Shown one piece after another: positions 16,660 to 22,219 of a DNA stretch of 64,000 nucleotides. The position numbers and the translations under genes were made by a program. Source of the DNA: an uncultured Planctomycetaceae bacterium (GTDB taxonomy: Bacteria > Planctomycetota > Planctomycetia > Planctomycetales > Planctomycetaceae). The notes beneath the pieces are model-generated. The model worked only from the letters and a program-made list of their open reading frames with translations. It had not been told where the DNA came from and did no database searches. Within the stretch, counting starts at the first letter, position 1, and every line of letters starts with the position of its first letter. The stretch spans positions 448,001 through 512,000 of the forward strand of contig CAWFAK010000007.1 of assembly GCA_963813715.1 (NCBI GenBank). The letters are read 5' to 3'.

Positions 16660-16918
16660 GCCCGCGGATTGCGTCTTCTTCGGCGACATTTCGCGTTTCC
16701 GCGCACTTCGGCAGAGAACCCGGAACCGTTTCGTCCGGAATAAACGGCACCCTCCGCGCCGCATTTTCGTTGCGTTCGCTGCTTCCGGTAAGCGCCGCCT
16801 TCCAAACGTGCCGACTCAATCGGTTGCAACGATTGCGCCGGCGTGCGCCTGCGTGCCACGCAAGGTCTGATTGAGGTTAGGGATGACCGCTCCAACGATG
16901 AGTCCCGCGCACCGCACA

Positions 16919-18707
16919 ATGGATGGTCCGCGCACGAAGGACTTTTGCGAATCCGGCACCCGTCCGCTCGGACGATCGGCCGTGACCGCGCGGGGCTGCC
17001 TGGTTCGCGCCCTGCTCGCCGCGACCCTCACCGCGGGATGCACGACGCCGAGCGAATACGTGCACAACGGCTTCAAGGTCGGCCCGAACTATTGTCCGCC
17101 CGACGCGGCCGTCGCCGCAAACTGGATCGACGCGAGCGACAAGCGCGTGCGGAGCGATTCGGACGACCTGAGCCAGTGGTGGCGGGTCTTCAACGATCCC
17201 GTGCTCGACGGCCTGATCAACGACGCTTATCGGCAGAACCTCACGCTTCGCGAGGCCGGCTTCCGCGTGTTGGCCGCCCGCGCCCAGTTGGGCATCGCCA
17301 TCGGCAACCTGTTCCCGCAGCAGCAATACGCCTTCGGCGACTACTCGCGCAACACGATCAGCAAGGAAACGGCCAACAACATTCTCGGCATCGGCACGGC
17401 GCTCAACGTGCCCGGGCTCCAGCGGAACTTCAACCAGTGGGATTACGGTTTCGGCATCGGCTGGGAGCTCGACTTCTGGGGCCGCTTCCGCCGGGCCGTC
17501 GAGGCGAACGAAGCCAACCTGGGCGCGTCGGTCGCCGATTACGACGACGTGCTGGTCACGCTCTTGGGCGACGTGGCGAGCAACTACGTCCAGTTCCGCA
17601 CGCTCGAGCGGCAGATCGCCTACGCGAAATACAACGTCGACTTGCAGCAGCAGACGCTGACGATCGTCGAGGCGAGGTTCCGCGCCGGCACCACGGGCGA
17701 GCTGGACGTGCACCAGTCGCGTTCGACGCTCGCCCAGACACAAGCCGGCATCCCCGAGCTGGAAATCAGTCAGCGTCAAACGGCTAACCAGCTCTGCATC
17801 CTGATGGGCATTCCGCCCGAGGACCTGCAGGCCCGGCTCGGAACGGCCGCCATTCCGACGACCCCCACCGACCTGGCCGTGGGCATTCCCGCCGATCTCC
17901 TGCGACGCCGGCCCGACGTCCGCCGCGCCGAACGAAACGCGGCCGCCCAGTCGGCCCAGATCGGCATCGCCGAGGCCGACTTCTACCCAGCGATCTCGAT
18001 CGTTGGCACGATCGGCTACTCGGCCGAGGCGTTCCCCAACCTGTTCCGTCAGGCCGCGCTCGACGGGACCATTGGCCCCAGCTTCAACTGGAAGATCCTC
18101 AACTACGGCCGCATCCTCAACAACGTCCGCGAGCAAAGGGCCAAGTTCCAGGAGCTGGTGACGGCGTACCAGCAAACGGTCCTCAACGCCGATCGCGAGG
18201 CGGAGAACGGCCTGATCACGTTCCTCCGCGCCAAACGCGGACGCAGTTCCAGACCGAAAGCGTCGACCGGGCACAGAAGGCCGTCACGCTGGGGCTCGTG
18301 CAATACCAGGCCGGCACGGTCGACTTCACCCGCATCACGCAGCTCGAACAGAACCTGGTGCTGCAGCAAAATACGCTCGCGGTCGCCCGCGGCGAAATCG
18401 CCCAGGGCCTGATTCAAACCTACCGCGCCTTGGGTGGTGGCTGGGAGAATCGTCAGGCGCTCGACGCCGGCACGTCCGGTCCGCAAGAGGTCGTGCTGAC
18501 GAACGTCGTGCCCCTGCCGGGAGCCCCACCCGCCCCGCTCCGCCAGCCCAAGCGCCGCCGGCCCAAGCATCTCCGGCCCAAACTCCGCCTGTCCAAGCTC
18601 CGCCGGCCCAAGTGCCGACCGCCCCGGTTCCGGCGGCCCCTATGCCGGCCAAAACTCCAGCGGCGGCAACTCCCCCAGGCCCGCAAGTGCCGAATCCGCG
18701 GTATTAA
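16919..18707 (+). CDS. outer membrane efflux factor lipoprotein (NodT/TolC family) with Pro/Ala-rich tail; frameshifts near 18240 and 18530
   Basis: LTAGC lipobox, KVGPNY, WWRVFNDP, WELDFWGR, PADLLRRRPDV, YRALGGGW. Confidence 0.9.
18540..18620 (+). repeat. imperfect 15-bp tandem repeat (about 5 copies) encoding PPAQ[A/T/V]
   Basis: ccgccagcccaagcg / ccgccggcccaagca / tctccggcccaaact / ccgcctgtccaagct / ccgccggcccaagtg. Confidence 0.7.
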
Positions 18708-18832
18708 GCCGCGTGGGCCGCGTCATCGTTCTGCGTCGAATCGGCGCCGCAAGAAAACAGCCACGGACTGCGTGAGCAATCCGTGGCTGGCTAAAAGCTT
18801 TCGCGAAGCAAAGCCGACCCTGTTGGGCCGTC

Positions 18833-20631
18833 TCAACCTCCGCAGCAGTTGCAGGCAGCTGTGCACGCCGGCTGACAAGCCGGTCCTACGGGCACTTGCA
18901 CCGTCACCTTCTGCGGCACCATCTTGCAGACCTGGACCGTGACGCTCTTCGTCACGTTCACCGGCACGCAGACCGTGTACTTCTCCGTCTGCTTGCGCTG
19001 AACCAGCTGGCAGATCGTTTCGTTGTACGTCTCGGTCTTCTGCTTCGGCACACACACCGTGTAGTTCACGGTGCGAGTCTGCTGCTCGTTCACGTACTCG
19101 CAAACCGGCACCGTTCGCGTCCGCGTTTCGTTCTTCGTCAGGCAGACGTTGTACTGATAGGTCTCCGTGCTGGGGACCATCTCGCACACGCGCACGGTCT
19201 GAGTTCGCGCCTCATTCCGGGTCAGGCAGACGTTGTAGTTGTACGTCTGCTGGGTCGGCACCATTTCGCACACGGGCACCGTCCGGGTCCGGGTTTCGTT
19301 CCGGGTCAGGCACACGTTGTACTGGTACGATTCGGTCGAGGGGACCATTTCGCACACGGTGACGGTCCGCGACCGGTTCTCGTTCCGAGTCAGGCACACG
19401 TTGTACTGATAGCTCTCCGTGCTGGAGACCATCTCGCACACCTTGACGGTCTGGGTCCGGGTTTCCGGGCGGCAGAGCGTGACCTGATAGGTGTAGGGAA
19501 CTTGAACGGTCTGGACTTCATTGCAGGTGTAGTTTTCCTGCTTCTGAACCATGTTCGCGACCCACGTCCGGCAAGTCGCCGGAGCACACGACGGAGTGTA
19601 GGCCGCCGTCGTGCAACCGCTGCCGACAGCCGCCGTGCAGCCGCCACAACCCGTATTGCAACCGCCGCAGCCCGTGTTGCAGCCACCACAGGCCGTCGCG
19701 CAACCGCCCGCAGGCGCCAACCGCCGGCCGCGGCCGGAGCCGGCCGATCTTCCCAGTGGCCCTGATCGACGCACACAGTCCGCGTGCGAGTGACAGGAAC
19801 CGTGTGACACTCAGTCCGCGTTCCCTGCCGATTTTCGGTGTAAGGAACTTGGACCGTGTACGACTGAGCGACCTCTTTCCACACCGGCTTGCAGACCGTC
19901 CGAGTGCCCGTCCGCGCTTCCGTGTAAGGAACGCAAACGGTGTAGTTCTCGGTGACCTGCTTCGACACCGGACGGCAAACCGTCCGGGTGCCCGTCCGCG
20001 TTTCCATATAGGGAACACAAACGGTGTAGTTCTGCGTGACCTGCTTCGTCACCGGCTTCATGACGGTGCAGGTGGCCGTCCGCGTTTCCGTGTACGGAAT
20101 GCAAACGGTGTAGTTCTGCACGACGTCTTTGTAGACCGGCTTGCACACCGTCCGAGTGCCCGTGCGAGCCTCGGTGTAGGGAACGCAGACCGTGTAGTTC
20201 TCGGTGACCTGCTTGGTTACCGGCTTGCACACGGTGTACGTTTCCTGCCGCGATTGCTGCTGCTGCTCGTAGACGGTGTAGGTGCGAGTTTTCTGCACGG
20301 TCTGGGGGACCTGCTCGCAGACCGTCACCTCGCGCGAACGCTCTTCATTGTGATATTCGACCGAGGGAACCTGCCGCGTCTCGTTAACGTAGCTGGGCAC
20401 CATCACCGTGCGTTCTTCCGTGCGATACTGGGGAGCGCACGGAGCGGCGGCAGCCGCCGGAGCACACGGGGCGGCGGCCGTCGCACAGGGCGCCGGAGCA
20501 CAGCCCGCAGCAGCGGGGACGGGAGCGGAACTGGGAGGCGGTGCACATTGAGCGGCGCCCCCTTTCGCGGCAAGCGCTGACCACGTCAGCACCGCCATCC
20601 AACAGACGGTGTAGCGATTCTTTAATGTCAT
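18833..20631 (-). CDS. secreted Cys/Val/Thr-rich repeat protein (~600 aa) with two 14/28-aa repeat arms and a Cys-Gly hinge; one frameshift near 19716
   Basis: AAGGAG SD before ATG 20631 and a signal peptide. Arm 1 repeat YTVCKPVTKQVTEN-YTVCVPYTEARTGT, hinge CGGCNTGCGGC, arm 2 repeat VCEMVPSTESYQYN-VCLTRNETRTRTVP. 84-nt periodicity in the DNA. Confidence 0.9.
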
Positions 20632-21222
20632 GCGGGACTCCTTACAAAGGTGCGCAACTCTGCCCACGTGCCCGGCGACACTGCGAGCGCTCCCTCGCCC
20701 GGTGACCCCTGGCCGCAGGTCGGATCTAAAACATCCCCCCGTTCCCTCGACCCACAGCTGCCCAGACTCTTTCCGGCAGCAGCCACAGGAGAACGAAGGC
20801 TCAGTCGTCAAACTGGGAAAGATACGTAAGAAATACCAAGGGTTCGCCCGCTTCGCCAGTGTTTCCCAACATAAAGCGCAGCACGGTGATTGCGTTCGAG
20901 GCACCCGTCGCATCGCGATGCCCGCGTTTCGCTCGGAAAAATCGCGGATCCGCGCAGTTTTTCGACACCGGTTTCAAAAACGAAAAAATGTGGGGCGAAG
21001 TTGGCGAGGCCCTGCACTCGGTGGTTTCGCGTGGCGTCGGTGGCGAATGGCTCTCATTTCGACCGTCGCTTGGCTCACATCCGGCCAGCCTTGCGTCGAT
21101 CGCGCCTCGTGTTTCTGTATAAAGCCGGGGAGCGGACTCGCGGCACGTTGCGCGAGGCAATCCGCGCAAAAAAATCCAAACGCACGACATCGCTGCGAAG
21201 ACGACGAGCTTCGGCGGGCCAG

Positions 21223-22091
21223 TTACTGCGCCTGCTGCAACAGCAGTACGGCAATGTCGCTCAAGAACGCGTCGCGGTCAACGCGCGAGCCCGGACCGCA
21301 ATTCACATGCGTTCGATTGGCCGTCCAGCCGCCCAAGATCGTGTGCGTCGGCTTGAGCAACTTCGCGTACTCATCGAGGAACAGCGTTGAAGGCCGGACA
21401 CGTCGGCCACGAGTGATTCGTAATTCGGCTGCGGATTGGGCGACGAATCGAAGTGCGCCTTGAGTGACCCGTCGAGCAGGCCTGCCGTCCGCAACGCCGG
21501 AATCAGTTGCTCGCTTAAGTCCCGCTCCAAAGTCGCGCAAAACGGCGGTTCGCGCAACAGCGTCAACAACAACTGCGGATTGCCGCGCAGGCCCACGATC
21601 ACGCGACTCTGGTACGGCTCTTCGATCCCGTTCAGCCTGGCGAGCTGCGACATCAAATCGCCTTCCTTCTCCAGCGTGAAATAATGTGCAGGCAGCTTGA
21701 GCAACGACGGCATGTCGTCCTCGGGCAGCTTCGCGAGAAACGCCACCAGGTGCGCCTCGGTCGGCCGCTGCGGCTCGGGCATCTCAACCGCCACGCCCTT
21801 CCAGCCGCAGAGCCCAAACTGGTGCACGCCGAAACTCTCCGGCGTCGGCGTGCTGGTGTCGGACTGATGTCGACACAGTCGCTCCCAAAAACCCTTGAGC
21901 CTCCGCTGCTGCTCCGCGTCTGGGTGCGCCATCGACGCAAGGAAGCCGGCCGGATTGGCGAACGCGGCCCCGGGTAAGCCCATGTGTGCGAAGAGATAGG
22001 CGATCGACGGTCCGCCGCCAGCAGTCGGATTCGCCGGCGTCGGTCGAGCCGGCGCCGGCTCGCGACGCCGAAAGATGTCGCCAAGTCCCAT
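21223..22091 (-). CDS. hypothetical protein; probable frameshift near 21400-21480
   Basis: EMPEPQRPTEAHLVA..YFTLEK in ORF 21303..22091 plausibly continues into TILGGWTANRTHVNCGPG..DAFL in ORF 21223..21540. Confidence 0.6.
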
Positions 22092-22219
22092 CGCGGTGCC
22101 CTCCCCGCTTGCGAAACGTCTCGATCCACTGTCAGCGCCGCGCGATCCGCAATTCTCCGCATGATTCTGCGCACGATTTGCCCGGCGAGATCGACTGCCG
22201 CGCGTTCCTCGGCGAATCG

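Follow-up and report, generated by a model that had tools for sequence, protein, structure and literature searches.

What the planctomycete cell wall is made of has been a matter of long debate, and the passages of the literature that bear on it name YTV proteins as its main protein component (PMC10632474, PMC5287468). The same body of work, in the parts that deal with the family, reports finding these cysteine-rich proteins in cell walls prepared from R. baltica, Gemmataceae and T. immobilis (PMC8567305, PMC10632474, PMC12673574, PMC5287468, PMC3343278), where they make up a major part of the walls that survive boiling in 10% sodium dodecyl sulphate (SDS) (PMC8567305, PMC12673574, PMC5287468). 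In these accounts the family is restricted to Planctomycetia (PMC8567305, PMC10632474, PMC12673574), and one member, essential in P. limnophila, is believed to influence the rigidity of the wall (PMC10632474, PMC5287468). In the literature collection that we searched, planctomycete YTV proteins figure as cysteine-rich wall proteins with YTV motifs, and no hairpin architecture or structural picture of them was found. Here we analyse a YTV gene at positions 18833-20631, on the minus strand, of a 64,000-nucleotide (nt) window (i.e., the whole stretch of DNA under study, positions 448,001 to 512,000 of contig CAWFAK010000007.1 in assembly GCA_963813715.1) from an uncultured Planctomycetaceae bacterium. 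We propose that the two halves of its product probably zip into one extremely long two-stranded β-hairpin, and that they do so without an intramolecular cysteine ladder.

We compared the protein with known families using its two halves (henceforth arm 1 and arm 2) and an intact copy of the gene on a metagenome contig, L022. Arm 1 matched the Pfam YTV family (PF07639) in 6 stretches (E 5.5e-35; 119.6 bits, cut-off 21), and the intact copy scored 86.3 bits; because these scores lie far above the cut-off, the gene is, judged by its sequence, a new addition to an established family. Arm 2 alone gave no Pfam match above cut-off and is similar to arm 1 (E 1.3e-22, 45% identity), while nothing in NCBIfam came near its cut-offs for the YTV protein. 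Cysteine accounts for 49 of the 599 amino acids (aa), or 8.2%, and the N-terminus probably carries a Sec signal peptide, recognised by eye. We read the region as one gene for a probably secreted 599-aa YTV-family protein, with a wall role assigned by family membership. The original prediction, made from the letters of the window, did not identify the YTV family and cast the protein as a candidate stalk or fibre subunit. Nothing was found that points to appendages, the family is documented in SDS-boiled wall preparations, and membership in it argues for a cell-wall component instead.

The overall plan that had been described (i.e., signal peptide, leader, two arms, cysteine-rich hinge and cysteine-rich tail) can be seen in the sequence (Table 1). 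A recount with the boundaries used then returned the same arm lengths, 226 and 228 aa, and the reported 14-aa cysteine periodicity holds in both arms: successive cysteines are separated by 30, 14, 14, 14, 11, 17, 14, 14, 14, 28 and 12 residues in arm 1, and by 17, 12, 14 (eight times), 16, 14, 14 and 14 residues in arm 2. A 2-residue irregularity noted in both arms was likewise found, with a gap of 30 in arm 1 (distance d of 158-188 from the hinge) matched by a gap of 16 at a similar distance in arm 2 (d of 154-170). At the DNA level each arm contains 4 tandem 84-nt copies with 68-76% identity (19828-20255 in arm 1 and 19098-19517 in arm 2). We also considered a DNA-level inverted repeat as the source of the mirror relation between the arms and ruled it out, as a palindrome search returned just one 31-nt inverted pair with 77% identity.

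One line of evidence for pairing between the arms comes from their lengths in relatives. We measured these between four landmarks: T-V-M-x-P-x3-T-E at the start of arm 1, G-x-W and W-V-P-N at the two hinge tryptophans, and V-x-V-C-K-M-V at the tail. Among 81 relatives that could be parsed in this way, arm 1 exceeded arm 2 by exactly 9 residues in 72; when arm 2 was shuffled between proteins, such matches averaged 16.5 and never numbered more than 30 (10000 trials). The rule extends over 11 length classes (arm 1/arm 2: 106/97, 120/111, 134/125, 148/139, 160/151, 162/153, 214/205, 216/207, 218/209, 246/237 and 302/293), with the present gene in class 218/209. Steps between classes are mostly 14 or 28 residues, and even 2-residue variants are mirrored in the other arm (160/151 vs. 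162/153; 214/205, 216/207 and 218/209). The hinge itself ranges from 15 to 169 aa in relatives, without correlation to arm length (rho 0.18). A further 16 genome loci yielded 4 that could be parsed, 3 of which form a twelfth class, 274/265, and 1 of which is an exception. The expectation that arm lengths co-vary in steps of 14 or 28 aa was thus strongly borne out.

Covariation between the arms points to one particular register. We calculated mutual information (MI), corrected by the average product correction (APC), from a gap-free landmark alignment of 56 sequences at ≤80% identity, pairing the column at W1−d with that at W2+d+k, where W1 and W2 are the hinge tryptophans. MI was 0.119 at k=0, 0.096 at k=−2, 0.082 at k=+2 and 0.007 at k=−4. 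The other 76 antiparallel diagonals had a mean of −0.002, a standard deviation of 0.012 and a maximum of 0.034 (placing k=0 at a z of 9.7), and 110 parallel diagonals reached at most 0.027. Counting columns from the outer landmarks towards the hinge gave −9 as the best offset, followed by −7 and −11; because the landmarks differ by 9 residues, −9 again corresponds to i+j = W1+W2. Pairs of like charge were least frequent at k=0 and k=2. An antiparallel two-stranded sheet should produce just such a ridge of MI, with shoulders at ±2.

Structure prediction gave the same register. AlphaFold2 (AF2) was run on the natural intact copy L022 (599 aa, 133 aligned relatives) rather than on the repaired window sequence, and the model has strands at 69-118, 180-206, 215-289 and 292-297 on one side of the hinge and at 353-358, 361-435, 500-526 and 532-581 on the other. 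The predicted local distance difference test score (pLDDT) is 76-91 at residues 70-110, 230-300, 350-420 and 540-580, and below 50 in the repeat cores, hinge and leader. The limits of the confident strands sum to 650, i.e., to W293+W357 (69+581, 118+532, 215+435, 289+361, 292+358 and 297+353). A compact relative, P0103 (316 aa, 109 alignment rows), was predicted with a mean pLDDT of 81.3 and 194 residues at or above 90; its model consists of two near-uninterrupted strands of about 110 residues (46-155 plus 158-163, and 190-195 plus 198-307) with pLDDT 96-98, the limits of which all sum to 353, its own W1+W2. These are mirror-symmetric giant strands, not the solenoid or disordered chain that would have spoken against the hairpin, and together with arm lengths and MI register they uphold the predicted antiparallel two-stranded ribbon around a tryptophan-flanked hinge. 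Foldseek searches against the Protein Data Bank (PDB) returned no match at E≤0.001 for the 599-aa model and 7 such matches for that of P0103, all with template modelling (TM) scores ≤0.12 and only to the longest hairpins that the PDB contains.

Several observations weigh against this reading. The four landmarks were all present in only 81 of 279 candidate proteins or open reading frames (ORFs), the remainder being fragments or other subfamilies, and the length rule is broken in 9 of those 81 (L021, L024, L025, P0114, P0161, P0219, P0209, P0215 and P0220) as well as in 1 of the 4 further loci. Some of the nine look like landmark errors; in L021, from a single-contig genome (G005), arm 2 is longer by 56 residues, which equals two 28-aa units. 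Kinship among the sequences inflates MI, for which the other diagonals are the sole control. The 599-aa model has a mean pLDDT of 58.7 and a predicted TM score (pTM) of 0.27, with pLDDT below 50 in the central part of each arm (117-217 and 435-533), in which the register is ambiguous because of the repeats, and pairing was deduced from the symmetry of strand limits assigned by DSSP, not from coordinates or a contact map. AF2 and MI draw on a shared covariation signal and are not independent of each other, which leaves the arm-length test as the only separate one. A free two-stranded ribbon of such length has no solved precedent, and the wall location, secretion and intermolecular disulfides of the protein are attributed to it through family membership and reasoning. 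A complex prediction in which each arm of the intact copy was entered as its own chain (residues 66-300 and 350-585, with alignments) scored 0.06 and gave no answer; it counts neither way. As a separate observation on unequal arms, arm 1 of L025 and L048 is 28 residues shorter than that of the closely related L047, L050 and L051; unequal-arm orthologues may be either real unmatched repeat changes or the result of repeat collapse in assembly.

The residues of the arms alternate strictly. One parity holds 82 of 83 threonines, 25 of 27 cysteines and 25 of 25 prolines, and the other 78 of 81 valines, 26 of 32 tyrosines and 83 of 94 charged residues; the same split is seen across the family as a whole. 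As read from the sequence, a ribbon built in this way has two faces, one almost purely Thr/Cys/Pro/Asn/Gln and the other Val/Tyr plus charged residues. Given the strict alternation of the strands and the register, the arm cysteines would all lie along one Thr-rich face, in two staggered rows. The shared parity of the prolines fits positions at which the backbone NH faces away from the partner strand, by the reasoning of sheet geometry.

Taken together, we envisage that the mature chain doubles back at a variable hinge that is rich in Cys and Gly and clamped by the conserved W293 and W357, such that arm 1 (residues ~65-293) would pair antiparallel with arm 2 (~357-585), residue i with residue 650−i. 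The product would be a two-stranded β-ribbon with ~229 residues per arm and a straight length of ~75 nm, which coiling would reduce. It may act as a rigid rod, at one end of which the Cys-rich leader and tail would meet, with the Cys-rich hinge at the other. The knots at the ends and the row of cysteines on the Thr face would then be disulfide-linked to neighbouring molecules and not arm to arm, and such intermolecular disulfides may stitch the rods into the meshwork of the wall. Extended to the family, this leads to a broader idea that we offer tentatively, at somewhat less than even odds: YTV proteins may be the longest β-hairpins in biology, two-stranded rods of roughly 35-100 nm that lengthen in matched 14-residue steps on both arms, with a Thr/Cys/Pro face and a Val/Tyr/charged face, whose cysteine end knots (plus, here, the Thr-face cysteine row) are disulfide-stitched between molecules into an SDS-resistant wall mesh. 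If so, rod length should scale with repeat number, loss of repeats from one arm should be harmful and loss from both arms tolerated, disulfides should join molecules and not arms, and the family would provide a natural, very long, length-programmable β-ribbon. The gene in this window is an ordinary member of the family.

A first alternative concerns the gene itself, as the assembled window splits it into two frames. Frame A starts at ATG 20631 and runs through a signal-like N-terminus, the leader and YTVC-type repeats to ...DQGHWEDRPAPAAAGG / ...VCVDQGHWEDRPAPAAAGG, beyond which it turns into Arg-rich junk. Frame B, open from 19810, contains ...APAGGCATACGGCNTGCGGC..., CRTWVANMVQK, the second block of repeats and the tail PACQPACTAACNCCGG. 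With residue 304 ending at 19720 and residue 306 starting at 19717, just 2 bases are left for residue 305. The break could be real in this strain, which would make the locus a pseudogene or a source of two separately made halves; the assembly does read so, and a 98% identical genome record (L049, possibly the same or a twin assembly) also has two ORFs, of 327 and 442 aa. We consider this unlikely, though among the alternatives it survives best. An extra G behind 19717 was present in 3 of 3 public runs covering the site, from different studies (DNA contigs of X1 and X3 and an RNA-library contig of X9; the comparison spanned 18700-20800, and run X4 lacked coverage of the break site), and a single 9.4-kb public contig covers the entire gene with the break-site base as the sole indel inside it. 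Metagenome contigs L022 (98.2% match to the window DNA) and L023 (97.4%) have one unbroken frame through the site: L022:1586-3382 encodes 599 aa, differs from the two frames of the window in 4 residues besides the break, and has ...AAAGG-C-APAGGC... at that point. The split version was absent among the relatives found. Specifically, a search with arm 2 only among longer proteins returned 14 relatives of 519-861 aa, all single-chain, and all 9 of those whose sequences were read had both arms in the same plan.

The assembly also seems to be one base short nearby. An outer-membrane efflux lipoprotein gene (16871-18470, plus strand; Pfam OEP, NodT-like) changes frame near 18232, and a tblastn search with the intact orthologue from L025 gave a match that splits at residue 474, the window apparently lacking one A in an A-run. 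Since this close neighbour of the YTV gene shares the defect, an indel-prone assembly fits, and so do the 82.6% completeness of the source genome and its 18 contigs. An assembly error is the most likely cause of the YTV frame break, and the proposal of one gene with one indel near 19716 has stood, with the missing base placed at 19717-19719.

The next alternative keeps the antiparallel register and places it between molecules, in a domain-swapped dimer or in a run-on polymer forming fibres or sheets. Neither covariation nor arm-length matching can separate pairing within a chain from pairing between chains, hinges of up to 169 aa would permit a swap, and planctomycete walls are described as insoluble networks in the relevant part of one source (PMC5287468). 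On the other hand, the hinge is merely 15-19 aa from Trp to Trp in L017, L015, L020 and L021, which favours a tight intramolecular turn, and AF2 monomers close the hairpin with high confidence at the hinge. We hold inter-chain pairing to be improbable, slightly more so than a real frame break.

The original prediction also had the two arms cross-linked by a ladder of disulfides, i.e., the same hairpin with cysteine facing cysteine at i+j = 646, and counted nine cysteine pairs arranged mirror-wise. The count is right at k=−4, and random placement of cysteines gave a mean maximum of 3.2 coincidences and never more than 6 (2000 trials). Nine pairs also coincide at k=+24, however, and 8 at k=−18, at k=+10 and in a parallel register; since k=+24 and the parallel register reach 9 and 8, the count is driven by periodicity, does not discriminate and provides no evidence for mirror symmetry. 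Other points in favour of a ladder are that many identical residues are opposed at k=−4 (C/C, P/P, V/V, T/T, N/N and Y/Y), that the cysteine counts of the two arms correlate over the family (rho 0.67), and that L025 has one cysteine per 28 aa, not two, in both arms. By contrast, MI at k=−4 is at background (0.007 vs. 0.119 at k=0), and the AF2 strand limits correspond to k=0 in both models. In that register (i+j = 650) C247 lies opposite residue 403, with the nearest cysteine, C399, four residues along the ribbon, and the same applies to 233/413 and 219/427, a distance that we judge too large by standard strand geometry. Arm cysteines are also not conserved, unlike those of the leader, hinge and tail, which are cysteine-rich in the relatives read: arm 1 and arm 2 have 0 and 17 cysteines in L015 and 1 and 27 in L021, arm 1 is free of cysteine in 13 of the 81 parsed proteins and arm 2 in 5, the two counts differ by at least 5 in 19, and family members P0020 and P0023 have none in either arm. 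Because arm cysteines do not face each other at i+j = 650 and are not conserved, we rejected the intramolecular ladder, to which we give even less credence than to inter-chain pairing; the hairpin without such a ladder remains our preferred reading.

Finally, we regard it as very improbable that each arm is an independent repeat domain (a β-solenoid or meander with disulfides between its own 14-aa units and no contact between arms): a 14/28-aa period with conserved Cys and Pro does resemble disulfide-braced β-helix repeats, and the 599-aa model is of low confidence in its repeat core, but lengths match exactly in 72 of 81 relatives down to 2-residue steps, the inter-arm MI ridge stands at z 9.7, P0103 has unbroken 110-residue strands at pLDDT 96-98, and two-residue alternation runs strictly over ~225 residues with no turn motifs.

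Table 1. Coordinates of the YTV gene, its parts and its paralogues; positions refer to the window unless a contig is named.
Feature	Position	Strand	Description	Basis
Whole YTV-family gene	18833..20631	minus	599 codons and a stop codon with the missing base put back	ORFs, intact L022 copy, PF07639
Shine-Dalgarno AAGGAG	20638..20643	minus	6 nt 5' of ATG 20631	read from sequence
Probable Sec signal peptide	20566..20631	minus	residues 1 to ~22 (MTLKNR, hydrophobic stretch, ALAA)	judged by eye
Cys/Ala/Pro-rich leader	20431..20565	minus	residues 23-67; Cys 29/44/49/56/65	sequence; AF2 pLDDT <50
Arm 1	19753..20430	minus	residues 68-293, to hinge Trp W293 (codon 19753-19755)	YTV repeats, Pfam, AF2 strands
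Cys/Gly-rich hinge	19565..19752	minus	residues 294-356; 11 Cys	sequence; AF2 pLDDT <50
Three CGGCNTG-type 21-nt repeats in hinge	19636-19708	minus		DNA repeat analysis
Frame break	19717..19720	minus	codon 305 (Cys); 2 bases (19718-19719) left	read-run contigs, L022, L023
Arm 2	18884..19564	minus	residues 357-583, from hinge Trp W357 (codon 19562-19564)	divergent YTV-like 28-aa repeat, 14-aa Cys period
Cys-rich tail PACQPACTAACNCCGG	18836..18883	minus	residues 584-599; stop at 18833-18835	
Intrinsic-terminator-like hairpin	18758..18789	minus	14-bp stem, 9 GC pairs, T-run; 44 nt past stop	
Paralogue on contig C8	~389.4-390.8 kb (L001:1231-2553)		440 aa; C-terminus seems to run out of frame	
Paralogue on contig C9	~338.1-339.7 kb (L005:604-2118)		504 aa	

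Family relatives were found in 44 of the 61 genomes of the same family, with open frames mostly of 430-820 aa, and PF07639 in 0 of 14 control genomes. The relatives are labelled Pirellulaceae, Pirellulales, Planctomycetaceae, Gemmataceae and Gemmatales, with one record labelled Calditrichaeota. The source genome has two further YTV genes (three in all), on contigs C8 and C9. Both differ in their unit sequences and have far more cysteines, with the plan unchanged: leader, arm, D-C-G-x-W, Cys-rich hinge, R-R-V-W-x-P, arm and Cys tail. Seven relatives (P0005, P0007, P0011, P0181, P0191, P0198 and P0204) bear the NCBI name 'ferredoxin'. Neither half of the YTV protein matched a ferredoxin family in Pfam or NCBIfam at E≤1, and because no ferredoxin domain was detected, the name probably stems from the Cys-rich hinge.

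The Shine-Dalgarno motif that had been pointed out upstream of the start codon is indeed there (Table 1), while the intergenic region in front of it, put at ~590 nt, measures ~670 nt: the spacer (20632-21302) extends to the next minus-strand ORF (21303-22091, 262 aa), which matched no Pfam family. A promoter scan returned no sigma-70-like site on the strand of the YTV gene, and an Rfam scan over 18400-21500 no match. RNA-library contigs of run X9 span 18869-20800, and RNA libraries account for 7 of the 20 public runs with matches, which is at most a hint of transcription. Two long antisense frames, both Arg/His/Leu-rich, are open over the gene (18896-19765, plus strand, 289 aa; 19756-20580, plus strand, 274 aa); open frames of this kind would be expected in GC-rich repetitive coding DNA, and neither gives any sign of being a gene.

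Downstream, the surroundings of the gene vary between strains. The 97-98% match of L022 and L023 to the window starts at 22213 or 20145 and ends at 18742, beyond which they diverge, and a contig of run X3 departs from the window at 18754. Past the terminator, the L022 and L023 strains have different genes, among them one with an AAA ATPase domain, in place of the efflux gene, which still adjoins the YTV gene in the more distant L025.

Set against known systems, the protein is closest to the YTV wall proteins of R. baltica, G. obscuriglobus, T. immobilis and P. limnophila, with which it shares PF07639, a signal-like N-terminus, richness in cysteine (8.2% in this protein) and YTV repeats; nothing sets it apart from them. 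Its arm 2 is too diverged for the Pfam model. Articulins and alveolins, to which it had been likened, are cytoskeletal proteins of protists. They have in common with it a repetitive Val/Thr/Pro/charged composition, and the likeness proved to be one of composition only, with no such Pfam family matched at E≤1; unlike them, this protein is bacterial, Cys-rich and, to judge from its N-terminus, secreted. Two-stranded antiparallel hairpins of tens of residues likewise occur in the phi29 tail knob (6qz9), the lysenin pore stem (5ec5) and the aerolysin-type and anthrax protective antigen (PA) pores, where the likeness to the YTV models is geometric only (5-16% identity, TM ≤0.12). Those hairpins are far shorter and stabilised by a barrel, whereas the strands of YTV proteins would run, with no barrel indicated, from about 110 to at least 230 residues.

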